Below, in pieces: positions 241 to 53,214 of a stretch of DNA of 64,000 nt. The stretch's first letter is position 1. The number at the start of each line of letters is the position of its first letter. The notes below the pieces were generated by a model. It had not been told where the DNA came from and did no database searches. It saw nothing but the letters and a program-made list of their open reading frames with translations. The position numbers and the translations under genes are program-made. This stretch comes from Clostridia bacterium (lineage in GTDB: Bacteria > Bacillota > Clostridia > UMGS1883 > UMGS1540), in assembly GCA_045535515.1 (NCBI GenBank), contig JAZSLT010000017.1, positions 8,931-72,930 of the forward strand, written 5' to 3'.

Positions 241-294
241 CCACATAATTTCAATAATGTGGAGGTTCTGTACCACATAATTTCAATTATGTGG
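241..294 (+). repeat. Two tandem copies of a 22-nt palindromic unit, CCACATAATTTCAAT[A/T]ATGTGG, 10 nt apart; the second is followed by a T-run
   Basis: Copies at 241-262 and 273-294 differ at one base. Each can fold as CCACAT/ATGTGG. TTTTTTT follows at 295-301, which looks like a plus-strand terminator. Alternatively these are recombinase or regulator binding sites downstream of the integrase gene. Confidence 0.6.
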
Positions 295-363
295 TTTTTT
301 TGTGGTTAAAATGTGTACAAGACTGCGAGCCATGATAGCGAATTTAATGCTTATGGGTTTTGT

Positions 364-1212
364 TTATAATCGCAACAGTCCTAATTCCTGTATTTGCCGG
401 CGATGCACATCGCCTGTTTCCATGGTGTAAATGCGGGTGGTATTGACGCTGGAATGGCCAAGAATATCTGCGAGCCTTACGATGTCTTTTTGCATACTGT
501 AATAGGTGCGTGCAAAAAGGTGACGGAGATTGTGCGGAAAAACCTTCGCTCTGGAAACGCCTGCATCTTCGCAAAGCGCCTTCATCATTTTCCATATTGT
601 GCTTCTGTCAAGCGGTTTACCTGTTTTAGTAATGAAAACGGGGCCGCTCTTTATTTTTTGTCCGCCTGCATATTCCAGCAGCATCCGGCAAAGCTCCTTT
701 GGCAAAATACAGATGCGCATTTTTCCCTTGCAGTTGATTTCTGCCTTTCCCGTTTTAAGGCTTTCCACCGTTATAAAGGATAACTCCGAAACTCTTATGC
801 CGCTGGCGCAAATCGTCTGCATAAGGTAATACAGCCTTTCGTTCTTCTTCGATTTAGCAGCGTCCAGCAATCTTCCGTACTCGGCTCTTGAAAGCTCCCT
901 CTCGTTTTGTGCAAAAATCTGTTTCTGGATTTTCAGCATTTTGACCTTTAATTCGTACCAATGGGCAAAGTCGAAAAAGCTGTTGAGCGAAGAAAGCACG
1001 GAGTTTACGGAGGCCGGTGCCAGTTTTTCTGTCAGCTGCTCCTTGTAGAGAAGCACCGTCCTCTTATCCATTTTCTGTCCGCCGCTCCATTCGGAAAATG
1101 CCGTAATGTCTCGTATATACTTCTCCCGTGTTGCCGTTGCTTTTTCCTCGTCAATTAAATAATTTTTAAATTTTCCAATGAGTTCTCTGTCGATAATTTT
1201 TGGTTTCGTCAT
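364..1212 (-). CDS. Tyrosine site-specific recombinase / phage-type integrase
   Basis: ORF 364-1284. The C-terminal catalytic region carries GIRVSEL, HNLRHLFAR and LGHSSVNTTRIY (R..HxxR..Y pattern). Start moved to the ATG at 1212, which is preceded by AGGAAG. Confidence 0.85.
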   Translation of the reverse strand: MTKPKIIDRELIGKFKNYLIDEEKATATREKYIRDITAFSEWSGGQKMDKRTVLLYKEQLTEKLAPASVNSVLSSLNSFFDFAHWYELKVKMLKIQKQIFAQNERELSRAEYGRLLDAAKSKKNERLYYLMQTICASGIRVSELSFITVESLKTGKAEINCKGKMRICILPKELCRMLLEYAGGQKIKSGPVFITKTGKPLDRSTIWKMMKALCEDAGVSRAKVFPHNLRHLFARTYYSMQKDIVRLADILGHSSVNTTRIYTMETGDVHRRQIQELGLLRL

Positions 1213-1418
1213 TTTAACAACTTCCTTTCTTTTGTTATAGTAGTATCCTACCTTAAGCATAATAATATTCTTTGAAGCTGTCAATAATTTACGGCTAAAA
1301 GTTACTTTTCACTAAAACTATTTGGACATTGCATCGCCCTTCCTTTTATATTTGTATATTGTATCGTCTTTTGATTGTACCATAAAATAACAGATAGTCA
1401 ACTGTTTTATTTATTTTA

Positions 1419-1447
1419 TTGACGAATTTTGTATTTTATTGTAGAAT
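1419..1447 (+). promoter_or_regulatory. Sigma-A-type promoter for the XRE/ImmA genes
   Basis: TTGACG (1419-1424), 17-nt spacer, TAGAAT (1442-1447), about 25 nt upstream of the ORF start. Confidence 0.5.
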
Positions 1448-1469
1448 ATATGTAAGGAAGTGATGCGCT

Positions 1470-1904
1470 TTGAATATGTATAAGGACTTAATTCGTAAAA
1501 GGATAAAGGAAAAATTCGGTACGATTGAAAATTTCGCAAAATATATGGCCATCCCCCGCACAACCATTAATTTTATTTTGAAAAATGGCGTGCATACCTC
1601 AAACTATGGTATGGTAAGCAAAATTTTAAAGGTGCTGGACATTTATCCGATGGATGGCCAGCCTGTTATTGTAGATGACGGCGTGCTGAATTTTATAAAA
1701 ATGTATAATGCACTGGATGATAGGGGGAAGCATACTGTTACCGCCGTAGCGGAAACAGAATACAGACGCGTCCATCCTGATGCTTTGGAAAATGCCATTA
1801 TCGCGGCCTATGCCGGTATTACTGCCGGTAAGCCTCTCACAAATGATGAAAAATTGATTTTAGATTTAGTGGAAAAGATAAAAAAGGATGCCCATGAAAA
1901 ATAA
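1470..1904 (+). CDS. XRE-family helix-turn-helix transcriptional regulator (element repressor candidate)
   Basis: 144-aa ORF with an N-terminal HTH-like segment (ENFAKYMAIPRTTINFILKNG). It overlaps the downstream ImmA-like gene. The start may be TTG at 1470 or ATG at 1476. Confidence 0.65.
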   Translation: MNMYKDLIRKRIKEKFGTIENFAKYMAIPRTTINFILKNGVHTSNYGMVSKILKVLDIYPMDGQPVIVDDGVLNFIKMYNALDDRGKHTVTAVAETEYRRVHPDALENAIIAAYAGITAGKPLTNDEKLILDLVEKIKKDAHEK

Positions 1905-2613
1905 TCTATCCAAGCAAACGGCGCATGCAATATTACGGCAAAATAAACTTTTCGCATTAACGGATTGCAGAGATTTACAGCGCATTGTTGCGTTTTATGG
2001 CTTTACCGTTATTGCCTACAAAAAATACAATAATTCCGAAAATATATCTGCCCTTATACAAAAACTGGGTATTGAAAAGGAAATTGAGCAGAACAACTCG
2101 TTTTTATATATAACGAGCACTCTGAAGCTTTTATTTATAAACGAGGATGTTTCCGACGAGGACAAGTGCGCCCTTTTGCGCCATGAGCTGGGACATATTT
2201 TGGACCCCTTTTTTATCAGCAGCGACACACTTTATTCGAAAATAAAAAAAGAAGAATTCGCAAACGAATTCTCCTTCTACTGCAAAAAGCCCGGCAAAGT
2301 CTTTATGCTGGAAATTTTTATGATAAAAAAATGGAAATGGTTGATAGGATTACCGGCGCTGATGGCATGTATAACCGGATTATTTATTATGCTTTCATCC
2401 CCTGCAGAAAGGCCGGCAAGCATTCAAACCATAGATACCACCCCGCACGAAAATTCTGATGCTATATATTACATAACATCAGGCGGAAAAAAATATCATC
2501 AAAGCTTTTGTATTATCGTGCGCTACCGAAATAATGTGACAGAATGTACAATGTATGAGGCGGCTTCGGCCGGATACAAGCCATGCTCCCTCTGTATAGG
2601 GGCGGAACAATAA
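1888..2613 (+). CDS. ImmA/IrrE-like zinc metallopeptidase fused to a TM segment and a Cys-rich C-terminal domain
   Basis: HELGH (HExxH) motif, a hydrophobic segment WLIGLPALMACITGLFIMLSS, and a C-terminal GGKKYH-x4-C...GYKPCSLC motif (Ada-like zinc-binding pattern). Confidence 0.6.
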   Translation: MPMKNNLSKQTAHAILRQNKLFALTDCRDLQRIVAFYGFTVIAYKKYNNSENISALIQKLGIEKEIEQNNSFLYITSTLKLLFINEDVSDEDKCALLRHELGHILDPFFISSDTLYSKIKKEEFANEFSFYCKKPGKVFMLEIFMIKKWKWLIGLPALMACITGLFIMLSSPAERPASIQTIDTTPHENSDAIYYITSGGKKYHQSFCIIVRYRNNVTECTMYEAASAGYKPCSLCIGAEQ

Positions 2614-2664
2614 AATGGTATACTTTCGCACACGAAAGAGAGCTTAACATAGAATGAGAGGGTG

Positions 2665-2844
2665 ATGGATGTGGCATTTGTCCCGAAAGAAACAAGGAAA
2701 AAAGTTAAAGCCGGATATAAAACGCTGTATATTACCGACGAGCTGGCTGAAAAATTGAATGCTCTTGCAAAAAAGCATGATACAAGCTTTAATAATATTG
2801 TCATAAGCATAATTGAGGACTTCTTTAAAGAAAATAAAGAATAG
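2665..2844 (+). CDS. Small ribbon-helix-helix (CopG/Arc-like) protein, putative
   Basis: About 59 aa. YITDELAEKLNALAKKHDTSFNNIVISIIEDFF fits a beta-strand plus two helices RHH pattern. A strong terminator follows. Confidence 0.4.
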   Translation: MDVAFVPKETRKKVKAGYKTLYITDELAEKLNALAKKHDTSFNNIVISIIEDFFKENKE

Positions 2845-2856
2845 GCTAAAATCAGG

Positions 2857-2889
2857 AAAAGCGGGTGCCCGATGGGTACCCGCTTTTTT
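2857..2889 (+). terminator. Intrinsic terminator
   Basis: GCGGGTGCCC-GAT-GGGTACCCGC hairpin (2861-2883) followed by TTTTTT. Confidence 0.8.
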
Positions 2890-3014
2890 GATGCCCGCGA
2901 TATGTCGCAAAAGAAAAACGATTTTCCGGCGTTGGAGAGATACTCTGCGTCGGCGAACATTTTTCTTTCAGAAAAATGTGAAATAAAATTTGCCCTTTCA
3001 TATTGCGTAGCCAT

Positions 3015-3075
3015 ATTTCATACACGAAGTGTATTTCATAGCGAAGCTATTTCACTTGCCGCAGGCAAATTTCAT
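3015..3075. repeat. Array of ATTTCA[T/C] heptamers alternating with mini-hairpins
   Basis: ATTTCAT at 3015, 3033 and 3069; ATTTCAC at 3049. They are separated by ACAC-GAA-GTGT, AGC-GAA-GCT and TTGCC-GCA-GGCAA. Confidence 0.7.
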
Positions 3076-3077
3076 TG

Positions 3078-3109
3078 AAAAAAGACTATTCCGAAGAATA
3101 GTCTTTTTT
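3078..3109 (-). terminator. Intrinsic terminator downstream of the tRNA-Ser genes
   Basis: AGACTATTC-CGAA-GAATAGTCT hairpin flanked by A6/T6 runs, so it could work in either direction. It directly abuts the tRNA 3' end. Confidence 0.8.
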
Positions 3110-3110
3110 C

Positions 3111-3202
3111 TGGCGGAGAAGGAGAGATTCGAACTCTCGCACCAGTTTCCCAGCCTACTCCCTTAGCAGGGGAGCCCCTTCGACCTACTTGGGTACTTCT
3201 CC
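3111..3202 (-). tRNA. tRNA-Ser (anticodon GCU)
   Basis: The reverse complement reads GGAGAAGTACCCAAGT...CTGCTAA...long variable arm...GGTTCGAATCTCTCCTTCTCCGCCA. It has a class II variable arm and an encoded CCA. Confidence 0.9.
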
Positions 3203-3224
3203 ATATTCTGTTTTGTTCCCGCCA

Positions 3225-3264
3225 CTCCTGCAAAGGGAAATGGCGAAGTGAAGCTTTGCAGGAG
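3225..3264 (-). other. Inter-tRNA spacer hairpin (probable processing structure)
   Basis: 11-bp perfect inverted repeat CTCCTGCAAAG / CTTTGCAGGAG with an 18-nt loop, between the two tRNA-Ser genes. Confidence 0.4.
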
Positions 3265-3272
3265 ATGGAATT

Positions 3273-3359
3273 TGGCGGAGAAGGTGGGATTCGAACCCAC
3301 GGCTCTTTCGAGTCACCGGTTTTCAAGACCGGCTCCTTAAACCGCTCGGACACCTCTCC
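3273..3359 (-). tRNA. tRNA-Ser (anticodon UGA)
   Basis: The reverse complement reads GGAGAGGTGTCCGAGCGGTTTAAGGAGCCGGTCTTGAAAACCGGT...GGTTCGAATCCCACCTTCTCCGCCA, with a long variable arm and an encoded CCA. Confidence 0.9.
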
Positions 3360-3375
3360 CTGCAGGAACAGAGTT

Positions 3376-3404
3376 ATTATAACAAAAAAACGGCGGAGTG
3401 TCAA
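3376..3404 (-). promoter_or_regulatory. Consensus sigma-A promoter for the tRNA-Ser pair
   Basis: On the minus strand: TTGACA (3399-3404), 17 nt, TATAAT (3376-3381), about 17 nt upstream of the first tRNA. Confidence 0.75.
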
Positions 3405-3514
3405 CTGTTTTTTCAAAAAATATCATTTTTGTTTTTACCGCCGGCAAAGGGTTTATGTGCCGCCGCATTTTCCTACCGAAAATGCGGCGGCCTTCTATTA
3501 AATACGAAACCGCT

Positions 3515-4069
3515 TCAGCGGGAGGCAAGATATGCCTCGCGTCCCTTTTCGTACAGATTCGTTCCCTCGCTGTCGATGATAACCACAAGGGGCATATCCT
3601 CGACATAGAGCTTTCGGAGCGCCTCCGCACCCAAATCCTCGTAGGCAATCAGCTCGGCGCTTTTAATGCACTTTGCCAAAAGGGCACCGGCACCGCCGAT
3701 GGCGCCGAAGTACACGCCGCTATACTTCTTCATCGCATCAATAACCTCGGGCAATCGTGCGCCCTTTCCAATCATGCCTCTGGCGCCGACGCGCATCATC
3801 GTAGGGGCGTACGCATCCATTCTTCCGCTGGTGGTGGGACCGGCAGAGCCGATGACCTGTCCCGGCTTTGCGGGAGTGGGGCCTACATAGTAAATCGTGG
3901 CATCCTTCGGGTCAAAGGGCAGCTCCTCGCCTCTCTCAAGTGCCTCGCACATTCTTTTGTGGCCGGCATCGCGCGAGGTGTAGATGGTGCCTGTCAGGAG
4001 AACCTCTTCACCGGCTTTTAAGGTTTTGGCAAGCGCTTCGGTGAGCGGCAATTTGATTTTTCTGGCCAT
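3515..4069 (-). CDS. Class-I (Fe-S) fumarate hydratase / tartrate dehydratase, beta (C-terminal domain) subunit
   Basis: 184 aa. IYTSRDAGHKRM, GPTTSGRMD and GKGAR motifs are typical of the Fe-S hydro-lyase beta subunit. The start is 1 nt from the alpha-subunit stop. Confidence 0.85.
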   Translation of the reverse strand: MARKIKLPLTEALAKTLKAGEEVLLTGTIYTSRDAGHKRMCEALERGEELPFDPKDATIYYVGPTPAKPGQVIGSAGPTTSGRMDAYAPTMMRVGARGMIGKGARLPEVIDAMKKYSGVYFGAIGGAGALLAKCIKSAELIAYEDLGAEALRKLYVEDMPLVVIIDSEGTNLYEKGREAYLASR

Positions 4070-4070
4070 A

Positions 4071-4913
4071 TTAAAGCACCTCCGATTTATGCCGCGTTAC
4101 ATGGCAGTTAATATTGATGGCGCAGGGCATTCCTGCGATATGGGTAGGCATCGTTTCAATATTCAGGCCAATAGCCGTTGTCCGGCCGCCAAAGCCCTGC
4201 GGTCCGATGCCCATCTGGTTGATTTTTTCCAGCATTTCCTTTTCCAAATCCGCATAATAGGGGTCGGGGTGTTCGGAATCGACAGGACGCATGAGCGCCT
4301 TTTTAGCGAGAAGCGCCGCCTTGTCAAAGGTGCCGCCGATGCCAACGCCCACCACCATCGGCGGACAGGGGTTCGGGCCGGCAAGTTCTACCGTCTCGAG
4401 AATAAAGTTTTTAATGCCTTCAATGCCGTGAGAAGGCTTGAACATACAAATACGGCTCATATTTTCGCTGCCGAAGCCTTTGGGGCCTACGGTGATTTTC
4501 ACATTTTCGCCCGGCACAATTTCCGTATAAATCATGGCCGGTGTATTGTCGCCCGTGTTGCCGCGGCGCACAGGGTCCTTCACAACGGATTTTCTAAGAT
4601 ACCCCTTATCATAGCCGCGCCGCACGCCCTCGTGGATTGCCTCCGAGAGGTCACCCCCCACAAAATGTACATCCTGCCCGATTTCGAGGAACACGCAAGC
4701 CATGCCGGTATCCTGACAAATCGGGACATTTTCATTGTCGGCAATTTCAAAGTTTGTGATGATATTGTCCAAAACGCCTCTGGCTATCTCGCCGTCCTCA
4801 CAGGCACGGCAGGTGCGGATAGCACACTTTACATCCTCAGGCAAATGCGTATTGGCCTCAATGCAAAGCTTTTCTACCGTATCGGTAACCAGAGCCACAT
4901 TTATTTCACGCAT
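4071..4913 (-). CDS. Class-I (Fe-S) fumarate hydratase, alpha (N-terminal domain) subunit
   Basis: 280 aa. PICQDTGMA and the later GFGGR segment are typical of the Fe-S hydro-lyase alpha subunit. AAGGAG ribosome-binding site. Confidence 0.85.
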
Positions 4914-19308: not shown

Positions 19309-20982
19309 TTATTTTTGCCCTCCCTTCATCATATTGGAAAAGGCCGATAAAAGTGCATTGGCCGAGGCGCGGATTACATCCGTATGGGTGCCGGCGCCCC
19401 AGAAGAAATCGCCGCCTTCCGTTTCCAGTCCGATATACGATGCGGCCACACTCTCCGAGCCTTGTCCCTGCATACTGTGCTGGGAGAATACCTCCAGCGT
19501 GTACGCCTTGCCCGTATACGCCTTTAAGGCATTGTTAATGGCACCGAGCGAACCGTTGCCTTCCGCCTCTACCGTGGTCTTCTCGCCATTTTCCGAGAAA
19601 GTGATGGTTACTTTTACCACATCATTCTCGCGCATAAATCTGAAATCGGCAACCTCAATTTCGCTTTGGGTGGCAAGATAGTTCTCTTCAAAAATGCGAA
19701 GCACATCAAAAGGCTTCAGTTCCCGATGCTCGCGCTCGGAAACGCCCTTGCAGACATAGCTTAAATGCTCGCGCATTTTCAAGGGCAATACATAGCCGTA
19801 TGTCTTTTCCAGCACATACCCGATGCCACCCTTGCCGCTCTGGGAATTGACACGGATAACATCGGCATCGTAGGTTCTGCCGATATCTTTCGGGTCAATG
19901 GGAATGTATGGCACATTCCAGATGTGCTGCTTATTCTTGCTTCTGAATTTCATACCCTTTGCAATCGCATCCTGATGACTGCCGGAAAACGCCGCAAACA
20001 CGAGCGCGCCGGCATAAGGCGCACGGTCGGCCACGCGCATTCTCGTGCATTTTTCATACTTTTCCACGAGATAATTCATGTCCGAGAAATCAAGCCCCGG
20101 ACTTACGCCATGCGAATACATATTCAGCGCAAGGGTGATAATATCCACATTCCCCGTCCGCTCGCCGTTGCCAAAAAGCGTGCCTTCCACCCTGTCGGCA
20201 CCGGCCAAAAGGGCAAGCTCCGTATCGGCAACGCCTGTGCCGCGGTCGTTATGCGGATGAACGGAGAGCGTAACATGCTCGCGGTATTTGAGATTTTTAT
20301 GCATGTACTCGACCTGATTTGCGTAGATATGGGGACTGCTCATTTCCACCGTTACCGGCAGATTGATAATAACATTGTTTTCTGCCGACGGCTCCAGAGC
20401 ATCCAGCACCGCATTGCAAACGGAAAGGGCATATTCCGGCTCCGTCCCCGTAAAGCTTTCAGGCGAATACTCAAAGCGGAAGTTGCCTTCATATTCGGCG
20501 GCCAGCTTTTTGATAAGCTCGGCACCCTCCACCGCAAGGCGGCAGATTTCCTCTCTCGACTTTTGAAACACCTGCTCTCTTTGCGCTAAAGAGGTGGAAT
20601 TATAAAAGTGAATAATGGCGCGCTTTGCGCCTTTTAAGGCCTCAAAGGTTTTTCTTATGATATGCTCGCGGCATTGTGTCAGTACCTGAATGGTGACATC
20701 CTCGGGGATTCTGTTTTGGTCAATCAGCGTCCGCAAAAACGCAAATTCCGTTTCCGATGCCGCCGGAAAACCAACCTCAATCTCTTTAAACCCTACCGAG
20801 AGCAGCACCTCAAAATATTCAAGCTTTTCCTCGAGACTCATCGGGATAATCAGGGCCTGATTGCCGTCACGCATATCCACGCTGCACCATATAGGCGCTT
20901 TTTCGATATGGTCTTTCTTTACCCAAGCCGTGTTTTCGCCCGGCGGGCTGAAATACCCTGCCTTGTACTTCGTATAGTCCAT
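19309..20982 (-). CDS. leuA: 2-isopropylmalate synthase (long form)
   Basis: Contains WCSVDMRDGNQ and HPHNDRGTGVA. Start moved to the ATG at 20982, which follows AAGGAGGA. The upstream part of the ORF overlaps the T-box terminator. Confidence 0.9.
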   Translation of the reverse strand: MDYTKYKAGYFSPPGENTAWVKKDHIEKAPIWCSVDMRDGNQALIIPMSLEEKLEYFEVLLSVGFKEIEVGFPAASETEFAFLRTLIDQNRIPEDVTIQVLTQCREHIIRKTFEALKGAKRAIIHFYNSTSLAQREQVFQKSREEICRLAVEGAELIKKLAAEYEGNFRFEYSPESFTGTEPEYALSVCNAVLDALEPSAENNVIINLPVTVEMSSPHIYANQVEYMHKNLKYREHVTLSVHPHNDRGTGVADTELALLAGADRVEGTLFGNGERTGNVDIITLALNMYSHGVSPGLDFSDMNYLVEKYEKCTRMRVADRAPYAGALVFAAFSGSHQDAIAKGMKFRSKNKQHIWNVPYIPIDPKDIGRTYDADVIRVNSQSGKGGIGYVLEKTYGYVLPLKMREHLSYVCKGVSEREHRELKPFDVLRIFEENYLATQSEIEVADFRFMRENDVVKVTITFSENGEKTTVEAEGNGSLGAINNALKAYTGKAYTLEVFSQHSMQGQGSESVAASYIGLETEGGDFFWGAGTHTDVIRASANALLSAFSNMMKGGQK

Positions 20983-21002
20983 CACCTTGTATTCCTCCTT
21001 TT

Positions 21003-21320
21003 TGTTTTTGAAACGGACACCGGATGGAACAAAAAACGCCCGCCCCAAAATAAATATTTTGAGACGGGCGCATACATACCTTGCGCTCGCGGTACCACTC
21101 AAATTGCATCGGCAAAGCCGATACCCCTTCAGGCTCCATCAAGCCCTTCTGCACTAACGCGGCATACACGGAAGAGACTACTGTCATTTCACCTCTTCGG
21201 CTCGGAAGGGAGAGTCACAAAGCAAAATCCCTATCAGCTCGCACCAACCGCTGACTCTCTCCAAAGCATCATTTGCCCGACATTCTTCGTCTCAGCCTTT
21301 ACTTTTATATTCAGTTTATA
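21003..21320 (-). promoter_or_regulatory. T-box leader (tRNA-sensing riboswitch) of the leu operon
   Basis: The minus strand contains the T-box sequence AATTTGAGTGGTACCGCGAGCGCAAGG (about 21075-21101). It also has a stem-I region with an AGAGAG motif and CUC codons in the putative specifier region. A terminator CGCCCGTCTC...GGGGCGGGCG plus TTTTTT lies at about 21027-21070. Confidence 0.8.
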
Positions 21321-22565: not shown

Positions 22566-22911
22566 TGGTGGAGGCGGCGGGAGTTGAACCCGCGTCCGAA
22601 AACATATTCACAGGAGCCTCTCCGAGCGCAGTTTATGGTCGGAATTCCCGCCTTTGCAAGTCCATAAACAACCTTGCAAATTTGGTAGCTTCATTATGCA
22701 TGCTTGCGGCAAAGCTTACGCAAGTCACGTTCACTGCTAGGTCACGCCCTGTCCCGTGCCGCAGTCCTCACGGGCAAGACGGCAGCTTTAATTAAGCTGC
22801 AAAAGCTAACTTATTATTGTCGCTTAATATTTAAGTTTGGGCTTTTAAAGAGGCGCCCGCCTCTGCTCGCTGCTCCGGCTTCAACATCCCCGTCGAAACC
22901 GTTACGCCCCC
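22566..22911 (-). ncRNA. ssrA: tmRNA (ssrA)
   Basis: On the minus strand the 5' end is GGGGGCGTAACGGTTTCGACGGGG and the 3' end is GGGTTCAACTCCCGCCGCCTCCACCA. An internal tag frame reads GAC AAT AAT AAG TTA GCT TTT GCA GCT TAA (..DNNKLAFAA*). Confidence 0.9.
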
Positions 22912-34450: not shown

Positions 34451-34546
34451 GAAAAACAGATATAGGGGCTGTATCACAAGGCGCGCTTTATGTGGTCAGG
34501 CATTGTGACACAGCCCTTTTTCTTTTCAGAACAAAGGAGGATTCTG

Positions 34547-36754
34547 ATGCAAACGCTACTGTCATCGCTAAATGCCGTACAGCTTCAGGCGGTCACCCAA
34601 ACAGCCGGCCCTCTTCTGGTGCTGGCAGGCGCCGGCAGCGGTAAAACGCGTGTGCTCACCTACCGCATCGCATACCTTATCAGCGAAAAGCATGTCCCGC
34701 CGGAGAATATTCTGGCCATCACCTTTACGAATAAGGCCGCGGCCGAGATGAAATCGCGTCTTGAAAACCTTGTGGGAGAAGGGGCCGAGCGCATCTGGGC
34801 GCGCACCTTCCACTCTGCCTGCGTGCGTTTTCTCCGCCGCGACATTGAGAAAATCGGCTACAAGGCGGACTTTACCATCTACGATGCCGCCGAGCAGAAG
34901 GCCGTTGTGCGCGAATGTCTTAAAGCGCTTTCTCTCGATGAGAAGGCCTACCCCGTTTCGGCGTGTCTTTCGCAGATTTCCCATGCCAAGAACGAGATGC
35001 TTTCCCCCTCTTCTTTTGCGGCGCAACACGAGGGGAACTTCCGTATGGAAGGCTACTGCAAAGTGTACACCCGCTATCAGGCACAGCTGGAAAAATACAA
35101 CGCGGTGGATTTTGATGACCTTTTGTGTCTGACCGTCCGCCTTTTTGAGGAATGTCCCGAGGTGCTTTCCTATTACCGCAATCGGTTTACCTATATCCAT
35201 GTAGACGAATATCAGGACACCAACGCCGTACAGTACCGCCTTGTCAGCCTTCTGGCCGAAAAGCACAGAAATCTCTGCGTAGTGGGCGATGAGGACCAGA
35301 GTATTTACAAATTCCGCGGTGCCGATATTCAAAATATTTTACAATTTGAAAAATCCTTTCCGGACGCCAAAATCATTCGTCTTGAGCAAAACTACCGCTC
35401 TACCCAGAATATTCTCGATGCCGCCAACGCCGTCATTTCCCACAACACAGAGCGGCTCGGAAAACGGCTCTGGACGGATAACGGCGAAGGAAGTAAGCTT
35501 ATAAAATACCGCGCCACTACGGAATATGACGAGGCCAGCTTTATTGCCTCTGAAATCTCCCGCCTGCACAGGCAGGAGGACATTCCCTATTCCGATATGG
35601 TTGTTCTCTATCGTATGAACGCGCAGTCGCGTCCTATTGAAGAACAGCTCCTATTAAATGCGGTTCCCTATAAAATTATTAAGGGGCATCGCTTTTACGA
35701 TGCGAAGGAAATTAAAGACAGTATAGCGTATCTTCGCGCCGTGCATAATCCGGACGATGATGTGAGCCTCGCCCGCATCATTAACGAGCCAAAGCGCGGC
35801 ATCGGGGCGACCTCGCTCGGCAAGGCGATGGCGATTGCCGCCGAGGAAAATATAAGCCTTCATACGGTGATTAGTCATGACCGGTACGCGCCGGCCGTCG
35901 GCTCTTCTTGGGCGAAAATGAACGCCTTTTCCAAAATGCTGGCGGAAATCCGCGAGGAGGCGGCCACACTTTCTATTCCGGCGCTGATTTCCATGCTGTT
36001 TGAGAAAACCGGCTATATGGGCCAGTTTAATCCGGAAAATCCGGAGGATGCGGTGCATGTCGAAAATCTGCAGGAATTTATCTCCGTCGGTATCAAGTAC
36101 GAAAAAGAGGCGGAAACCTCTTCCCTTACCGATTTTCTCGATAACCTCGCCCTCGTTTCGGATGTGGACGATTACGATGAGGATATGGACAGCGCTACAT
36201 TGATGACCATTCACACCGCCAAGGGACTGGAATTTCCGGTTGTGTTTCTGGCCGGCTTTGAAGAGGGTGTTTTCCCCTCCTACCGCGCCGTGACGGAAAG
36301 TGGCGAAATTGAAGAGGAGCGCCGCCTTTGCTATGTGGCCTTAACGCGCGCGAAAAAGAACCTATATGTCACGCACGCGCAAACGCGTACGCTTATGGGT
36401 GCCACCACGCGAAATCGCGTGTCCCGCTTTATGCTGGATATTCCCGAAAAGCTTTACATCGAGGAGGGCGCCGACATACAGGTACATGGTGTGGATATTC
36501 CGGCCTTCACGCCGCGACCGCGCACCCCTGCCCGATTCCAGACAACGATTATGACAAAAACGCCTGCCCCCGCGCCCGCGGCGTGTAGCTGTCCGCTTTC
36601 TGTCGGAGATAAGGTACGGCACAGAAAATTCGGCGAAGGCACCGTTCTTTCCGCGGTGCCGGTGGGAAATGATACGAAGCTCGAGATTAACTTCCTCACC
36701 GCCGGTAAAAAAACACTTCTGGCGACATATGCGCAACTGGAAAAACTGGATTAA
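34547..36754 (+). CDS. pcrA: ATP-dependent DNA helicase PcrA/UvrD family
   Basis: Contains AGAGSGKT, VDEYQDTN, the IHTAKGLEFPVVF segment and YVALTRAK. Start moved to the ATG at 34547, which follows AAGGAGG. Confidence 0.9.
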   Translation: MQTLLSSLNAVQLQAVTQTAGPLLVLAGAGSGKTRVLTYRIAYLISEKHVPPENILAITFTNKAAAEMKSRLENLVGEGAERIWARTFHSACVRFLRRDIEKIGYKADFTIYDAAEQKAVVRECLKALSLDEKAYPVSACLSQISHAKNEMLSPSSFAAQHEGNFRMEGYCKVYTRYQAQLEKYNAVDFDDLLCLTVRLFEECPEVLSYYRNRFTYIHVDEYQDTNAVQYRLVSLLAEKHRNLCVVGDEDQSIYKFRGADIQNILQFEKSFPDAKIIRLEQNYRSTQNILDAANAVISHNTERLGKRLWTDNGEGSKLIKYRATTEYDEASFIASEISRLHRQEDIPYSDMVVLYRMNAQSRPIEEQLLLNAVPYKIIKGHRFYDAKEIKDSIAYLRAVHNPDDDVSLARIINEPKRGIGATSLGKAMAIAAEENISLHTVISHDRYAPAVGSSWAKMNAFSKMLAEIREEAATLSIPALISMLFEKTGYMGQFNPENPEDAVHVENLQEFISVGIKYEKEAETSSLTDFLDNLALVSDVDDYDEDMDSATLMTIHTAKGLEFPVVFLAGFEEGVFPSYRAVTESGEIEEERRLCYVALTRAKKNLYVTHAQTRTLMGATTRNRVSRFMLDIPEKLYIEEGADIQVHGVDIPAFTPRPRTPARFQTTIMTKTPAPAPAACSCPLSVGDKVRHRKFGEGTVLSAVPVGNDTKLEINFLTAGKKTLLATYAQLEKLD

Positions 36755-36757
36755 AAA

Positions 36758-37000
36758 GGGAATGTAAAACAAAGCGCAGAGCGCTTATGGGCGGGATTGG
36801 TGAAATTTCCGAAAAGCAGACATTCCCTAACAAATAGCTTTATGTAGAAATCTGCAGTTTTTGCAGATGTGTGTTATGTGTAGCCCATAAGCTCTAAACG
36901 AACCTCACCGCTCGTCGTACCCATGTACGACTTCGGGTATCCCTCGTGGGCAAGCCCCCTCGGTTCGGTTCGTTTATTCTGCATCTTTTTTTCCATCCCC
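36758..37000. repeat. Copy A of a ~245-nt structured repeat element (MITE-like or ncRNA-like)
   Basis: It starts with GGGAATGTAAAA and ends with TTTTTTCCATCCCC. It shares sequence blocks and a covarying helix architecture with 52008-52258. Confidence 0.65.
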
Positions 37001-37007
37001 CAAAAAA

Positions 37008-37031
37008 GGGAATGTAAAATAAAGCGTAGAT
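37008..37031. repeat. Solo left-end fragment of the same element (duplicate of 36758-36781)
   Basis: GGGAATGTAAAATAAAGCGTAGAT versus GGGAATGTAAAACAAAGCGCAGAG. Confidence 0.55.
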
Positions 37032-37062
37032 GAGCGCGCATACAGGTTTTATCCTATTTTTC

Positions 37063-37103
37063 AAAAAGCGGCAGTAAAAAACAATGTTTTTTACTGCCGC
37101 TTT
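37063..37103 (-). terminator. Intrinsic terminator after the noc/parB-like gene
   Basis: An 18-bp stem AAAGCGGCAGTAAAAAAC / GTTTTTTACTGCCGCTTT with a T-run on the minus strand. Confidence 0.8.
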
Positions 37104-37104
37104 C

Positions 37105-37920
37105 TTACTTATCTATGCGTATGGTGTACTCGTAATAATCCTCATATTCCGTCTTTCTTGTTTTCGGCTTTACCCCTGCCTCGCGCACCATCTCAAGGGC
37201 CTTTTCAATCGTATTTAAAAAGATACGGTAATCGCTTTTCTTCCGTTTGACTACGGGTGGCGGCGCAGGCACCGCCTCCTCCGGCTTTTCCTCCTCGGCT
37301 AAAAGCGAATCTATGTAGGAATCCGTCTGGCGTACATTCATGTTTTTTTCCACAATCTGCATCAGCGCCTTCCATTGCAGCTCCTCATCCTCCAGACGAA
37401 GGAGTGCGCGGGCGTGCCGTTCGGTCAGCTTATTGTCCGATACAATTTTCTTTAAATACGGCGATAGCTTTAAAATCCGGAGCTTATTGGAAACGGTGGA
37501 TTGCTTTTTGCCTGTTTTTTCCGCCACCTCCTCCTGTGTCATCCCATGGTCGTGAATCAGATGGTAATACCCCTCCGCCTCCTCAAAAAAGCCAAGCTCC
37601 TTCCGCTGGAGATTTTCAATCAGCGCGATGACGGCGCTATCGTTATCCGTAATCGTCAGAATCATGGCCGGAATGGTGGGACGGCGCAGCGATTTTGCCG
37701 CCCGAAGCCGCCTCTCTCCCGTAACCAGCTCATAAAGGTCCTTGGAAATACGGCGCACAGTAATCGGCTGGATAATGCCGTATTCCCGAATGGAATTGGC
37801 CAGCTCCTCAATCGCCATACTGTCGAAGGTCTGGCGCGGCTGATAGGGATTGGGGATGATGGAATCCACGGGTAACTGAAAAATTTTATTTTTTTCGTCC
37901 TGTAGTTTAAAATTCAACAT
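37105..37920 (-). CDS. ParB/Noc-family DNA-binding protein (nucleoid occlusion / Spo0J-like)
   Basis: Contains the ParB box GERRLRAAK, NPYQPRQ, and the HTH MTQEEVAEKTGKKQSTVSNKLR. Start moved to the ATG at 37920, which follows GAGGTG. Confidence 0.8.
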   Translation of the reverse strand: MLNFKLQDEKNKIFQLPVDSIIPNPYQPRQTFDSMAIEELANSIREYGIIQPITVRRISKDLYELVTGERRLRAAKSLRRPTIPAMILTITDNDSAVIALIENLQRKELGFFEEAEGYYHLIHDHGMTQEEVAEKTGKKQSTVSNKLRILKLSPYLKKIVSDNKLTERHARALLRLEDEELQWKALMQIVEKNMNVRQTDSYIDSLLAEEEKPEEAVPAPPPVVKRKKSDYRIFLNTIEKALEMVREAGVKPKTRKTEYEDYYEYTIRIDK

Positions 37921-37994
37921 ATATGCATCACCTCGGAAAAATATTACCATATTTTTCCATATTTGTAAAGAAAAAAATTCCGACTTCTTTTTCA

Positions 37995-38690
37995 TCAAGA
38001 AATCGGAGATTTTTGTGGTTTTCCGGCTTTTCTGGGGTACTGTGCCGGTGTTTGTCGCTCCTTGCGGATAGCGATGACAATATGCTCGGTATCCTGCCAG
38101 GATGCGTCAAAAATTTCTGTAATTTTTCCGCCTAAAATCCGGATGGCTTTTTCGGCTTTTTCCGTTTCCTCTTTGCCGTCGCGCCCCTTCATCGCCAAAA
38201 ATACGCCGCCCACCTTCACAAGCGGCAGGCAATACTCGCAAAGCACCGGGAGCCCTGCCACCGCACGGGCGGTAACGACATCAAAGGCCTCGCGAAATGT
38301 GCTGTGCCCCGCGTCCTCCGCTCTTATGTGCGCCGTTTCTATGCCGGAAAGCGAAAGCTCTTCTATAACGGCCTCTAAAAAATGCAGGCGCTTTTGTAGG
38401 GCATCCATAAGCACTACTTTTAGGTCCTCCCGCACAATCCGAAGCGGCACGCCCGGAAAGCCGGCCCCTGTGCCGACATCGGCTACCCTCGCCCCTTCCG
38501 GCACAAGCGACTGGCAGCTTATACTGTCCACAAAATGCTTGTTGACCACGCCGGCATGGTCGGTAATCGCCGTTAAATTCATTTTTTCGTTCCATTCAAG
38601 GAGCCGTTTTTCATAGAGGGCAAACCGTCGGCACATCTCGTCCGTAGGTGTGATGCCAAAGGCGGACAGCCCTTTTTTCAGTTCTTCCAT
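37995..38690 (-). CDS. rsmG: 16S rRNA (guanine527-N7)-methyltransferase
   Basis: 231 aa with the VGTGAGFPG SAM motif, in the gidA-gidB context. Confidence 0.85.
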   Translation of the reverse strand: MEELKKGLSAFGITPTDEMCRRFALYEKRLLEWNEKMNLTAITDHAGVVNKHFVDSISCQSLVPEGARVADVGTGAGFPGVPLRIVREDLKVVLMDALQKRLHFLEAVIEELSLSGIETAHIRAEDAGHSTFREAFDVVTARAVAGLPVLCEYCLPLVKVGGVFLAMKGRDGKEETEKAEKAIRILGGKITEIFDASWQDTEHIVIAIRKERQTPAQYPRKAGKPQKSPIS

Positions 38691-48919: not shown

Positions 48920-49621
48920 ATGCTGGTGCGACTCGCAGATTTAAATATCTGCATCGAAAACCGACATCCCTATACAGCACTTCTCTGCCGCGATTATCTG
49001 GCCAAAGAGGCCGCGGCAGATTTTTGCGTGTCTGCAACCGAGGAGGAGATTTTGGCAGAGGACTGCGGCCGTGACATGCCGGACTATGCCGAAAGCCTCG
49101 CTATCTATCGCAAAATTGCCGAGAGAATCGTGGGATATGACGGTTTTTTAATGCACGGCGTTGTTTTAGAGGTAGAGGGACGAGGCGTTGCCTTTTTAGC
49201 CCGAAGCGGCGTTGGGAAATCGACGCATGCCGCCTTCTGGCAGGAAAGAATGGGAGATGCCGTTACGGTTATTAACGGGGATAAGCCCCTCATTCGTTTT
49301 ATCGGCAACACGCCTTATGCCTACGGCACGCCCTGGGCCGGCAAGGAAGGGTGGAACAAAAACGCGCGCACGCCGCTTTCCGCCGTATGCTTTCTGTCGC
49401 GGAGTGAAGAAAACATCGTAACGCCCATGCCGAAGGAGGAGGTTCTTTTCTCCCTGCTTCCACAAATTTATGTGCCCGGAGACGGGCAGAAGGCCTCTCG
49501 CCTTCTGGATTTATTGGCCCGTTTTATAGAAAACACAGCGTTTTATTCTGTTCGTTGCAACAAGAGCGCCGAGGCGGCGGAGGTTTGCTACCGCGCTCTT
49601 TTTGCGGAAGGAAAAAAGTAA
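48920..49621 (+). CDS. HPr-kinase-like P-loop protein (peptide-maturation-associated kinase candidate)
   Basis: 233 aa. MHGVVLEVEGRGVAFLARSGVGKSTHA resembles the HprK C-terminal P-loop core. Confidence 0.45.
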   Translation: MLVRLADLNICIENRHPYTALLCRDYLAKEAAADFCVSATEEEILAEDCGRDMPDYAESLAIYRKIAERIVGYDGFLMHGVVLEVEGRGVAFLARSGVGKSTHAAFWQERMGDAVTVINGDKPLIRFIGNTPYAYGTPWAGKEGWNKNARTPLSAVCFLSRSEENIVTPMPKEEVLFSLLPQIYVPGDGQKASRLLDLLARFIENTAFYSVRCNKSAEAAEVCYRALFAEGKK

Positions 49622-50065
49622 ATGCAGGGTATAGAAAGTATTTTACGCGAAAAAAAAATATTTATCGGCAAAACCGCCGGCGACAGTATGGAGCCGATGC
49701 TCCGCGAGGGCAGGGATACGGTGATTGTGGTGCCGCCCACCTTTCCGCTTAAAAAGGGCGATGTGCCGGTATACAGAAAAAGCGGGCATTATACGATGCA
49801 CCGCATTGTCCGCAAAACGCGCCGCGGCTATATTATCTGCGGCGACAACCGCGTTATCCCCGAGCGGGATGTGCGCGAGGAGGATATCATTGGCGTTCTG
49901 GCCGCTTTCTATCACGGGGAAACCTATGTTTCCTGTACCGATGCGGCCTATATCCGGTATACGAAGAAGGTGTGCCGCGCGTATCCGCGCCGCCTTTTTC
50001 GCTCTTTTTTAACAAGAATTGTACGAAAAATTAAAAATATTTGCAAAAAGGAGAATGTAAAATGA
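49622..50065 (+). CDS. S24/S26-family serine peptidase (LexA/signal-peptidase fold), no TM segment
   Basis: GDSMEPML Ser motif, with a downstream Lys in HRIVRK. 147 aa. Confidence 0.65.
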   Translation: MQGIESILREKKIFIGKTAGDSMEPMLREGRDTVIVVPPTFPLKKGDVPVYRKSGHYTMHRIVRKTRRGYIICGDNRVIPERDVREEDIIGVLAAFYHGETYVSCTDAAYIRYTKKVCRAYPRRLFRSFLTRIVRKIKNICKKENVK

Positions 50066-50316
50066 AACTGAAATCCGGCTTTATCGTTCGTAAAATCGTA
50101 AAGGATACGGTGCTGATGGACATGCAGAATACCGAGCGCGTACTGCGTCTGAATGAAACGGCGGCCGATATCCTCACACTTTTGACAGAAGGCCTTTCGG
50201 AGGCGGAAATTGCCGCGCGCATGGCGGAGATGTATGCCATCGATGCGGAAACGGCCACCCGTGATGTGCAGGCTGCTTTGGAGACCTTCCGAACTTTGGG
50301 TGCTATCGAAGACTAA
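50062..50316 (+). CDS. PqqD-family peptide-binding chaperone (RRE domain)
   Basis: 84 aa. LRLNETAADILTLLTEGLSEAEIAARMAEMYAIDAETATRDVQAALETF fits the PqqD pattern. The ATG at 50062 follows AAGGAGAA. Confidence 0.75.
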   Translation: MKLKSGFIVRKIVKDTVLMDMQNTERVLRLNETAADILTLLTEGLSEAEIAARMAEMYAIDAETATRDVQAALETFRTLGAIED

Positions 50317-50337
50317 GACACGGAAAGAGGTCCACGG

Positions 50338-52017
50338 ATGAAAAAGAAAAGCACCATTTTATGGATAGGGAAGCACACAAAGGGGCAGCTCCTGCCCCTA
50401 CTTCTCTTAAGCCTTTGCAGTATGATTACCGCATCGGCTTATGTTCTGCCTGCGCTCCTGTCGCGCCGGATTATCAATACCGCCACCTCTTCTGCCTCGC
50501 TTGCCGCCGCGGCGCCTGCGCTTTTTCGCGACGGTCTTTTTTTGCTTGGCATTATCCTGGTGCAGCTTCTTTTATCCCTTCTTATCAATTTCCTTCGCAC
50601 CAGTATTTCGGGGCGGCTGGAGATTTCGCTTCGGCAAGCCTTCTTCCAAACTATCCTTAGGAAAAACTACAGCGAAATTTCAGGGCTGCATTCCGGCGAA
50701 ATTTTAACGCGCTTTACCTCGGATGTGGAAATTGTGGTAACGGGCATCACCGGTTTTATTCCGCAGATGCTTTCTATCGCCGCAAAGCTTTTGGCCGGTA
50801 TGTTGGTTGTATTTTCCTTCTCGAAACGCTTTGCCATTTTTTCTCTTTGCCTTGGTACATTGATTTTGCTCCTTTCCCTCCTGTTTCGTCCCTATTATAA
50901 ACGGATGCACAAGGCCGTACAGGAGGCTTCCGGCATCTCGCGCAGCTTTGCGCAGGAATGTGTGGAAAATATTGTGGTTATCAAAACCTTTTCGGGAAGG
51001 GCACAGATACTGGGGCGACTGGCTCTGCACATGAAGCGGCTCTTTCGCGTGATTCTCCGCCGCAGTATTGTTTCCAATCTCGTCGGCAACGGCATCTCGC
51101 TCCTTTTTACGCTTGTATATTACGGCACACTCCTTTGGGGCGCCTTTTCGCTTTTACAGGGGGATATGGATTACGGCACGCTCGTAGCCTTTATGCAAAT
51201 CGTTTCGCAGATTCAATCACCGTTTGTAAATGCCTCCTCGCTGATTAGTCAGTTTTACAGCGCGCTGGCCTCGGCAGAGCGGCTGATGGAGCTGGAGGAT
51301 TTTACGGACGAAGAGGAAGATGCCGAGCCGCTTTTAGTCTCTTCGGTATATGAGGATTTAGAGGCGCTTTGCGCGGAGAACCTTTCCTTTCATTACGATA
51401 AAAACGAAATTCTGCGCGATACCAGCTTTTCTCTCCCAAAGGGCAGTATGACGGCGATAACCGGCATCTCCGGCACAGGCAAAAGCACGCTTTTCCGCCT
51501 TTTATTAGGTCTTTTCCCCCCATCTGGCGGGCGCCTTTATGCGAAAACACGAGGCGGCGATGTACCACTTTCTGCCGCCACGCGCCCTCTCTTTGCCTAT
51601 GTGCCGCAGGGGAATTTTCTTCTCTCCGGAACCATTCGCGATAACATCAAGTTCTTAAACCCCGATGTTTCGGACGCGCAAATGGAGGCGGCGGCGAAAG
51701 TGGCCTGTGTGTATGACTTTCTGCCAACGCTAGAGAATGGCTTTGACACGCAAATCGGGGAACGCGGCCACGGCCTTTCCGAAGGACAGGTACAGCGCAT
51801 CGCCGTAGCACGCGCCCTTTGCTCGGATGCCCCGATTTTACTTTTGGACGAATGTACCTCCGCGCTGGACAATCAGACGGAGGAGCGCCTTTTACAAAAT
51901 ATTGCGGCGCTGAAAACAAAAACGGTGTTGTTTATCTCGCACAAAAACGCCGCCTTTTCCTTCTGCGACACGCATCTTGCTATAGAAAATGGCATTTTTC
52001 GGCAGATGGGAATGTAA
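50338..52017 (+). CDS. ABC exporter, fused permease/ATPase
   Basis: 559 aa with an N-terminal 6-TM domain, Walker A GISGTGKST, signature LSEGQVQR and Walker B LLLDE. There is no C39 peptidase domain. Confidence 0.85.
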   Translation: MKKKSTILWIGKHTKGQLLPLLLLSLCSMITASAYVLPALLSRRIINTATSSASLAAAAPALFRDGLFLLGIILVQLLLSLLINFLRTSISGRLEISLRQAFFQTILRKNYSEISGLHSGEILTRFTSDVEIVVTGITGFIPQMLSIAAKLLAGMLVVFSFSKRFAIFSLCLGTLILLLSLLFRPYYKRMHKAVQEASGISRSFAQECVENIVVIKTFSGRAQILGRLALHMKRLFRVILRRSIVSNLVGNGISLLFTLVYYGTLLWGAFSLLQGDMDYGTLVAFMQIVSQIQSPFVNASSLISQFYSALASAERLMELEDFTDEEEDAEPLLVSSVYEDLEALCAENLSFHYDKNEILRDTSFSLPKGSMTAITGISGTGKSTLFRLLLGLFPPSGGRLYAKTRGGDVPLSAATRPLFAYVPQGNFLLSGTIRDNIKFLNPDVSDAQMEAAAKVACVYDFLPTLENGFDTQIGERGHGLSEGQVQRIAVARALCSDAPILLLDECTSALDNQTEERLLQNIAALKTKTVLFISHKNAAFSFCDTHLAIENGIFRQMGM

Positions 52018-52258
52018 AAAATGCGCACACCTCACAAGGCAAAGAAATGGCGTTAAAGCCTGTAAGCAGACACGATCGTTTTCGCAAATAAATGGAGAAG
52101 GAATTCGCCGAGTGACGAATTCCTTCTAATTTTGTTGCCTTGTGTTTTGAACAAACTTCGCCTCTCGGCGTACCCATGTACGCCTTCGGGTAACCGAAAA
52201 CGAGGCTACGCCTTGTTTTCGCTCAGTTTGCCCAATCTGCGCTATTTTTTCCATCCCC
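52008..52258. repeat. Copy B of the ~245-nt structured repeat element
   Basis: It has the same termini and conserved blocks as 36758-37000. Its left end overlaps the last codons and stop of the ABC gene. Confidence 0.65.
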
Positions 52259-52264
52259 AATAAG

Positions 52265-52299
52265 AAAGTGTAGCAAAATGAAAAATTTTGCTACACTTT
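52265..52299. terminator. Bidirectional terminator hairpin between the repeat element and trxB
   Basis: A 15-bp stem AAAGTGTAGCAAAAT / ATTTTGCTACACTTT with T-rich flanks. Confidence 0.7.
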
Positions 52300-52308
52300 T
52301 ATTTTAAT

Positions 52309-53214
52309 CTATAATCTATCTACATAATCGCACGCGGCAAGGGCGGCTATTGCGCCGTCGGCCGCTGCCGTGGCGACCTGACGGATTTTTTTACTCCGGC
52401 AATCGCCTGCGACGAAAATGCCTTCCGTTCCGCTTTTGCAGCTTTCATCCGTTTCGGCATAGCCGTAGGCGTTAAGCTCCAGAACCCCCGAAAACGGCTC
52501 GTTTTGCGGCACAAGGCCAATGGCAACAAACATGCCGTCGGCAGAGATTTCCTCTTCCTTTCCGTTTTCTGTGTTCCTTACGCGCACACCGCGAAAGCCG
52601 TTATCCTCTATAATGGACGCCACAACCGTTTCAAAGCGGACTTCCACATTTTTCTTTTCGAGCAGCTGCACCGAGAGCGCGCGCTCTCCCGTAAAGTCTT
52701 TTAAATTCTGCAGAACATATACCTTTTCGCAAAGCTCAGAAAGGAGAAGTGCCTCCTGCAAGGCGGAATTTCCGCCGCCGACAACCGCTACCGTCTGTCC
52801 TTTGTAAAAGGCCCCGTCGCAAACGGCGCAGAAGGAAATCCCATCGCCGATATACTGCTCCTCATTCGGTATGCCAAGGAGGCGGTGCCGCGCACCAGTG
52901 GCGATGATGACGGCTCGGCCTTCATACACCCCTTCATCGGTGATAACCTTTTTGGGGTTGCCGTTTTCAATTCCTAAAACGGTGCAGCATTCTATCTCCG
53001 CGCCCTGCTCCATTACCTGCTCCGTAAGCTTTTCGGCAAAACCGCTGCCGCTGATGGCGGCAAAGCCGGGAATGTTCTCCACTTTCGGGGAAAAGGTAAC
53101 CTGTCCGCCGAAGGTTTCCTTCTCCAGCACCAAAACGCTCTTCCCTGCACGGCGCGCATATACGGCCGCCGTAAGACCGGCCGGTCCGCCGCCGACAACA
53201 ATAATGTCAAACAT
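52309..53214 (-). CDS. trxB: Thioredoxin-disulfide reductase
   Basis: 301 aa with VVGGGPAG, the redox-active CAVCDG, and GGGNSA. Confidence 0.9.
   Translation of the reverse strand: MFDIIVVGGGPAGLTAAVYARRAGKSVLVLEKETFGGQVTFSPKVENIPGFAAISGSGFAEKLTEQVMEQGAEIECCTVLGIENGNPKKVITDEGVYEGRAVIIATGARHRLLGIPNEEQYIGDGISFCAVCDGAFYKGQTVAVVGGGNSALQEALLLSELCEKVYVLQNLKDFTGERALSVQLLEKKNVEVRFETVVASIIEDNGFRGVRVRNTENGKEEEISADGMFVAIGLVPQNEPFSGVLELNAYGYAETDESCKSGTEGIFVAGDCRSKKIRQVATAAADGAIAALAACDYVDRL

Follow-up and report, generated by a model that had tools for sequence, protein, structure and literature searches.

Proteobacteria (REP/REPIN) and a few Firmicutes have well-charted sets of structured non-coding repeats that propagate themselves. 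To our knowledge, such repeats have hardly been charted in uncultured Clostridia, the dominant bacteria of gut and rumen communities. Structured, MITE-like repeats include bcr1 of the Bacillus cereus group, BOX and RUP of pneumococcus, Correia, and ERIC. They occupy 3′ or intergenic sites, where they can be co-transcribed with their neighbors, and for some there are reports of compensatory changes. REP, BIME, and REPIN elements are found in Proteobacteria and are mobilised by RAYT Y1 transposases (PMC3116915, PMC3733652). Group IIC introns typically lie just downstream of an intrinsic-terminator motif, in a fixed orientation (PMC1702495). Here, we describe a previously undescribed family of >100 folded, non-coding repeats from uncultured gut and rumen Clostridia, two copies of which are found in a 64,000-nt stretch of DNA from a Clostridia bacterium (hereafter “the window”).

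The two full elements lie at 36758..37000 (copy A, 243 nt) and 52008..52258 (copy B, 251 nt), both with the folding strand on the minus strand (see below). Read on the plus strand, they share a start, GGGAATGTAAAA, and a finish, TTTTTTCCATCCCC, and a 24-nt core block, CGTACCCATGTACGNCTTCGGGTA, occurs twice in the window, against zero occurrences expected by chance. An earlier note on this DNA had listed the two copies with their common ends and shared blocks, a 10-bp helix, inner hairpins, and a core hairpin, all of which are present where it placed them. It also put both copies between convergent genes, which is correct: copy A separates PcrA (34490-36754, +) from ParB (37105-37998, −), and copy B separates an ABC transporter (50338-52017, +) from TrxB (52309-53214, −). 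The pcrA stop codon occupies 36752-36754, and the left end of copy A, GGGAATGTAAAA, begins 3 nt later. The ABC-transporter ORF ends within the first 10 nt of copy B, at the TAA at 52015-52017. On either strand, both copies fold far better than dinucleotide shuffles (z from −5.4 to −8.7).

Scans of two sequence collections indicate the extent of the family. A core-pattern scan of one genome per GTDB species found 25 loci in Clostridia, Oscillospiraceae, and “Lachnospiraceae” MAGs, with several genomes having 3–5 copies in a single MAG. A metagenome scan, using a pattern in which hairpin P4 (see below) was left free, found 115 stretches, with human gut, rumen, and fermenter among the sample types. 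The element is dispersed and multi-copy, in support of the reading in the earlier note. Both scans needed exact conserved motifs, so they under-sample the true diversity of the family, and almost every relative of the element comes from a MAG or metagenome contig. An nhmmer profile and R1, a covariance model of the core, both find exactly two copies in the window. The R1 scores are 94.8 bits for copy B (E = 1.5e-22) and 81.7 bits for copy A (E = 4e-19), with the E-values being rough; the next-best R1 match in the window, with filters off, is 11 bits. R1 has 80 matches in the first 100 loci that were retrieved from metagenomes and Clostridia MAGs (loci are denoted here by “L” and a number).

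The earlier note could not match the element to a known RNA family, and neither could an Rfam 15 gathering scan of the whole window, which returned nothing at either copy. Rfam E-value scans of both copies (E up to 10), and a scan of a long variant, returned only chance hairpin matches far below the gathering score. Annotated plasmids, phages, and 2.9 million viral contigs have no matches to the element, and we found no equivalent element in the literature. Elsewhere in the window, Rfam 15 matches a tmRNA (22566-22911, −), a T-box leader (21057-21302, −; 97.6 bits) directly upstream of the 2-isopropylmalate synthase gene (19309-21102, −), two tRNAs, and Gut-1.

The fold was scored on an alignment of 55 non-redundant full-length copies (A3), which includes copy A. 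The scored structure was hand-drawn with six helical segments, merged into five helices by the counting tool. Paired cells amount to 94.9%, versus 82.0% in column shuffles, with none of 500 shuffles reaching the observed value; controls in which the partner was slid along the alignment have 36–45% paired cells. Changes on both sides are found in 31 of the 43 pairs. Structure-preserving divergence, proposed in the earlier note from two copies, is now demonstrated on 55. Read on the minus strand, the five helices contain 1,782 Watson-Crick, 143 G.U, and 14 A.C pairs. An A.C pair would be a G.U pair on the opposite strand; the large excess of G.U over A.C therefore identifies the minus strand as the folding strand, as do the folding energies. 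Some of the wobbles are fixed in position, e.g., 27:113 in 46 of the 55 copies and 19:265 in 36. For the whole element, folding favors the minus strand in 54 of 55 copies (means of −83 versus −72 kcal/mol), and the duplex of the closing helix, P1, is likewise favored in 54 of 55 (−22.3 versus −16.5 kcal/mol; −22.2 versus −16.0 kcal/mol for copy A). The strand under structural selection is the minus strand of the window. The plus strand, which the earlier note had implicitly taken as the orientation of the element, is ruled out as the functional strand by the wobble counts and the energies; the tetraloop content of P5 was no help with the choice of strand either way.

Strand specificity changes how the ends of the element should be read. 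The earlier note described them as imperfect inverted repeats; they do pair, as a closing helix of ~25 bp that is much more stable on the minus strand. It follows from the strand-specific wobbles and energies that the “terminal inverted repeats” are a single-strand helix and not a double-stranded protein-binding site. This bears directly on whether the element is a classical MITE, i.e., a deletion derivative of a DDE-transposase insertion sequence that is mobilised as double-stranded DNA via its ~25-bp terminal inverted repeats. The imperfect inverted-repeat ends, the size of ~245 bp, the many intergenic copies, and the deletion variants all speak for a MITE. However, the ends hold position-specific G.U wobbles, and one strand pairs more stably by 6 kcal/mol (54 of 55 copies), neither of which would result from recognition as double-stranded DNA; moreover, four internal helices covary. 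We consider a classical MITE very improbable.

The folded strand starts with GGGGAU, finishes with AUCCCC, and has three parts: P1, a conserved three-way junction (P3, P5, and P4), and a variable second arm. P1 has a conserved small internal loop. In copy A, its 5′ strand (36975..37000, −) pairs with its 3′ strand (36758..36785, −), whose reverse complement, GGGAATGTAAAA, is the “left end” of the earlier note; in copy B, the 3′ strand (52008..52035, −), which holds the ABC-transporter TAA on its plus strand, pairs with 52233-52258. The conserved core spans 36892..36985 (−) in copy A and 52145..52243 (−) in copy B. P3 (copy A, 36967-36977 with 36894-36904, from column mapping; copy B, 52225-52235 with 52147-52157) is prolonged by a tandem G.A/A.G motif in 49–50 of 55 copies, with Watson-Crick pairs instead in 3. 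The tandem G.A pairs are at 36965-36966 with 36905-36906 in copy A and at 52223-52224 with 52158-52159 in copy B. An R:Y pair covaries without exception, being G:C in 35 copies and A:U in 19. The P5 hairpin (36941-36962 and 52194-52220) differs in length between copies; next comes a joining strand with the sequence G(G)UUACCCGAAG. P4 (36925-36931 with 36914-36920, and 52178-52184 with 52167-52173) has a covarying stem and a free loop, and a second joining strand reads CGAGAGGYGAAG. The joining strands of the junction are purine-rich and invariant, with the tandem G.A motif alongside. CUGA and GAA beside stems are reminiscent of small self-cleaving ribozymes such as the hammerhead, with its CUGANGA...GAA...H core at three stems, a candidate that we rejected: the GA pairs with GA across P3, the third joining strand is 12 nt long, and no Rfam ribozyme model matches.

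Outside this fixed core, the element is free to vary. Some copies have an extra domain of ~175–200 nt at P4; in one subfamily (L133, 1022-1447; L066, 4093-4488; L099; L077), the domain is conserved and replaces the P4 hairpin, and a 426-nt variant of this subfamily keeps the overall fold (z = −8.3). The second arm (36783..36892 in copy A; 52032..52145 in copy B; both −) comprises a 10-bp helix, P2 (36883-36892 with 36783-36792, and 52136-52145 with 52032-52041), and an inner hairpin (36850-36868 and 52096-52127), with an interior that varies even among the copies of one genome. We considered and rejected several functions. The inner hairpin is not an internal terminator, since a T-run follows it in only some copies. 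The variable arm is not a guide, since it has no excess complementarity to its own flanks: the longest arm-flank match averages 7.69 nt for a copy's own flanks and 7.53 nt for the flanks of other copies. The lack of an excess match also speaks against an IS110/IS1111 bridge or seek RNA, in which internal loops complement the target and donor flanks, as does the lack of an adjacent recombinase (DEDD) gene. A retron msr-msd is rejected because the neighbors are housekeeping genes with no reverse transcriptase downstream. A small ORF, as in a type I toxin-antitoxin system, is not shared in the alignment, and an ATG in the P4 loop is not conserved.

The position of the element is as distinctive as its fold. 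In roughly 38 of 52 copies, a hairpin with a T-run, or another copy, lies directly upstream (within ~15 nt, in the folding orientation); this count reflects our own reading of the upstream sequences, with an automated classifier giving lower counts. The spacer between the upstream hairpin and T-run and the element is variable, at 1–4 nt. At the other end, 36 of 55 copies have a T-run just past the element, and 37 of 55 have a long ORF on the opposite strand that stops between −12 and +10 nt from the 3′ end; in 12 of those 37, the stop codon is inside the element (TAA in six, TAG in six). Because the copies are located directly 3′ of a hairpin and T-run or of another copy, they are wedged between a bidirectional terminator and a convergent stop codon. 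The earlier note had placed both copies immediately after a plus-strand gene. The adjacency holds, but with the minus strand being under selection, the stop codon of that gene is reached from the other side, by the 3′ end of the folded strand.

The hairpins upstream of the window copies are both perfect palindromes of the terminator type, with no strand assigned. H_A (37065..37103; 19+19), with GTAAAAAAC/GTTTTTTAC inside the stem, lies between the end of parB and an array formed by copy A and a mini copy (see below); H_B (52265..52299; AAAGTGTAGCAAAAT/ATTTTGCTACACTTT) lies 9 nt past the trxB stop codon. No other hairpin in the window has GTA and an A-run in its stem. The companion hairpins are perfect palindromes of 35–40 nt with GTA(A/G) inside the stem. 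The 3′ arm of the hairpin is often a near-repeat of the 3′ tail of the element, with the two co-varying by subfamily (L034, L058, L054, L078). In one MAG, an identical hairpin, including the loop, precedes copies at separate loci (L115, L129, L005), which suggests that the upstream hairpin travels with the element or derives from it. The outer stem of H_A (AAAAAGCGGCAG...CTGCCGC) also resembles an ordinary terminator at an empty site (L148, 3712-3745; AAAAAGAGGCACAGC...): H_A looks like the stem of that terminator with TAAAAAAC-AAT-GTTTTTTA inserted inside it. From this likeness, the family signature may be able to enter terminator loops.

In its choice of site, the element is similar to a group IIC intron, since it lies 3′ of a terminator stem-loop in the same orientation in the copies counted above, and it likewise has a structured core with variable peripheral domains. 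However, the element is 245 nt long, compared to >600 nt for the intron, which is a six-domain ribozyme, and has no domain V or VI, no 5′ GUGYG or 3′ AY, no reverse-transcriptase ORF, and no match to an Rfam intron.

Several lines of evidence point to mobility. The neighbors of the element are unrelated housekeeping genes, e.g., aldolase, enolase, and a histidine kinase genes, and enolase is flanked on opposite sides in different genomes. In five relatives with a PcrA 77–84% identical to that of the window, the element is absent downstream of pcrA and only an ordinary terminator is found. One of these sites, L148, has the identical gene order, Tkt-PcrA> <ParB<GidB, with a spacer of 68 nt versus 350 nt in the window; compared to L148, the window has its insertion on the far side of the terminator, flanked by the terminator at one end and the pcrA stop codon at the other. 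The ABC-transporter locus holds an intact element in the window and one that is degenerate on both sides in L027; L026 and L028 have none there. The ABC transporter is the last gene of a cluster (48920-52017 in the window) that is conserved in L026–L028 and includes Cu_amine_oxidN1-like, ScmC, Peptidase_S24, and PqqD genes; it looks like a peptide-maturation and export locus.

Variants of the family include head-to-tail tandem arrays, losses of one or both arms with both ends kept, expanded P4, and chimeras with other repeats. The window holds one such derivative: a third GGGAATGTAAAA, at 37008, opens a degenerate mini copy (A′, 37008..37064, −) in tandem with copy A, with both ends present and both arms gone. 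Similar deletion derivatives are found in L024 and L005. In L026 (JAZROH MAG, 4175-4520), at the position of copy B and 3′ of the ABC-transporter orthologue, there is a different tandem repeat of ~214 nt (TGACGGGGATTCTCGATGAATCTCCGTCA...), with a hairpin between the two units (GGCGTACGATGGTACGGC) that resembles P4 on the opposite strand. Two more repeat families, one with the motif GAGCGAACAAGCGTGAGCG and the other with the hairpin GGGCGACCACATAGGGTCGCCC, adjoin the element or truncate it within P4 (L030/L038/L061, ~4260-4740 in L061 coordinates; L059, L119, L130, L043, L117, L008); in L061, a phage terminase-like gene cluster follows the repeats.

The insertions have no consistent target-site duplication, which may count against a MITE. 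Both flanks are rich in T or in A, and a few pairs have the look of a duplication (TTTTAA in L001, TTTTTAC in L063), unlike the majority. A parent insertion sequence with the same ends, which a MITE would also lead one to expect, was found neither in the window nor in 143 loci (~0.8 Mb). Across the 143 loci, no neighboring protein family recurs as a candidate mobilising enzyme. The earlier note's observation that no transposase lies nearby holds, and we found no mobilising enzyme; the only mobile-type gene in the window is a tyrosine recombinase 35 kb away. This phage-integrase family protein (364-1284, −; 306 aa) has an N-terminal SAM-like domain, and its gene adjoins two tRNA genes and the Gut-1 RNA motif (3010-3359 region). 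The region at 1-4000 has a lower GC content (0.42 versus ~0.52) and may be the edge of an integrated element.

Our best explanation, to which we give about an even chance, is that the family consists of non-autonomous, non-coding mobile repeats that propagate, or are recognised, as a folded single strand, here the minus strand. Under this model, a trans-acting enzyme, with its gene elsewhere in the genome, would recognise the conserved junction. P1 and the T-run behind it would mimic the hairpin and T-run of the target, such that new copies would insert behind old ones; we propose that head-to-tail arrays arise because of this imitation. Old copies would then lose their arms, leaving mini hairpins that may persist because they work as terminators.

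Alternatively, the folded strand may serve the host, as a structured minus-strand RNA in the extended 3′ UTR of the gene preceding the hairpin. Such an RNA could be a fail-safe terminator or insulator that halts read-through precisely at the boundary of the convergent gene, or the product of a multi-copy small RNA or protein-sponge gene. Much about the fold favors RNA, including the strand-specific conserved wobbles, the tandem G.A pairs, the GGG start, the T-run past the 3′ end in 36 of 55 copies, and the 3′ end at a convergent stop codon in 37 of 55; in addition, peripheral domains grow and shrink around a fixed core, as they do in large structured RNAs. Indeed, the invariant, purine-rich junction strands look more like part of a working RNA than a mere transposase-binding site. 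However, we see no sigma-70 promoter for a minus-strand transcript, whether upstream of the two copies or as a conserved feature of the alignment, and a strong hairpin of 15–19 bp with a T-run lies 5–12 nt upstream. The strand made by local transcription is certainly the opposite of the folding strand. A host function is also at odds with the patchy presence of the element at orthologous loci, its free decay into arm-less minis and chimeras, the existence of tandem arrays, and the freedom of half of the element to vary. We regard a host-serving RNA as somewhat unlikely.

If the folded strand is DNA, one source of single strands would be the replication fork. For both copies in the window, the folding strand is the G-rich one. 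The plus-strand GC skew is negative almost throughout the window, and the minus strand carries the majority of genes; from this, the window would appear to belong to a single replichore, in which the leading-strand sequence is the minus strand. Across 39 loci, however, just 14 have a folding strand that is G-rich compared with the flanks, so the link to replication direction that fits both window copies fails as a rule, and this lack of GC-skew tracking disfavors DNA exposed at the fork.

The same observation weighs on a more specific version of a DNA-based mechanism, in which the element is an HUH/Y1 single-stranded DNA element, either a RAYT-mobilised, REP/BIME-like module or an ORF-less IS200/IS605 derivative (PATE), and the folded minus strand is the DNA strand that is cut and joined by the transposase. 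Strand-specific folding that tolerates G.T, the absence of a target-site duplication, and insertion beside hairpins in head-to-tail, mosaic arrays are all consistent with such an element. The companion palindromes of 35–40 nt with internal GTAG or GTAA are also suggestive, and GTAG-tagged REPs donate TAG stops (PMC3733652), with the equivalent seen in 12 of 55 copies here. However, the GTAG is not at the foot of the palindrome, and the window and the surroundings of the copies lack a Y1 transposase. Moreover, the long pairing ends, the five-helix core, and the invariant junction strands far exceed the simple subterminal hairpins of IS200/IS605 or REP elements. Taken together, we regard an HUH/Y1 element as unlikely.

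PATEs and the omega or right-end RNAs of IS200/IS605 elements differ from the element in further respects. They are similar in having strand-specific structure, no target-site duplication, a fixed orientation relative to a short target, and a length of ~200–300 nt. In the element, however, the ends pair with each other rather than forming simple subterminal hairpins, and because the conserved, structured half is 5′, with a T-run behind it, transcription would not yield a flanking “guide”. What lies upstream is a hairpin and T-run, not a conserved tetra- or pentanucleotide target 5′ of the left end; neither TnpA nor TnpB is encoded near the copies; and the folding strand has no replication-strand bias (14/39), whereas the active strand of an IS200/IS605 derivative would lie on the lagging-strand template.

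In a further reading, the element is a new kind of RNA-based mobile element in gut Clostridia. It would be an ORF-less, 245-nt minus-strand RNA with an invariant three-way-junction core, catalytic or part of an RNP, that either inserts behind terminators or circularises via its closing helix in a viroid-like or retrozyme-like manner. In the former case, insertion would be self-directed, as in group IIC introns, by an RNA a third of their size; in the latter, the tandem arrays would be the footprint in DNA. We consider either form distinctly unlikely.

The element would work most like REP/BIME/REPIN modules and structured MITE-type repeats, while failing the defining features of each. In common with REP/BIME/REPIN elements, it is intergenic, multi-copy, non-autonomous, and often found between convergent genes; it is accompanied by palindromic hairpin units that serve as terminators, forms clusters and mosaics, and has termini that can give the flanking ORF a stop codon. 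However, a REP is a 20–40-nt palindrome or a doublet thereof, whereas the element spans 245 nt and folds into five helices around a conserved three-way junction. Furthermore, it lacks a GTAG or CGTC tag at the foot of a palindrome, it is found in Clostridia, and no RAYT, which would be a single-copy gene with the repeats on its flanks, is encoded in the 64-kb window or beside any copy. In common with the structured MITE-like repeats, it is small, dispersed, and non-coding, with a stable predicted secondary structure. It differs from them in having no sequence or Rfam relationship, no TTTAT/TA target duplication, a folding strand antisense to the abutting gene, a tie to a hairpin and T-run, and an invariant, purine-rich junction core. 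None of the families that the earlier note had named (classical MITE, IS200/IS605-type, and REP) can therefore claim the element, which we rate as a structured, non-autonomous repeat.

The family combines a clean, covarying fold, with a conserved junction that some partner must read, and an unusually precise location, with a terminator hairpin on one side and a convergent stop codon on the other. The puzzle is that structural selection acts on the one strand that local transcription would not be expected to make. Solving it would lead to a new mobilisation route, in which RNA or single-stranded DNA homes on terminators, or to a new class of 3′-end RNA. In practical terms, MAG assemblies are broken by the element, housekeeping genes acquire altered C-termini and stop codons, and terminators are replaced or duplicated. 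A separate conserved, structured-looking sequence was seen among the fetched loci, in the leader upstream of mgtE in L146 (3790-3990) and L147 (3795-3980); it is probably a candidate Mg2+ (M-box) riboswitch.
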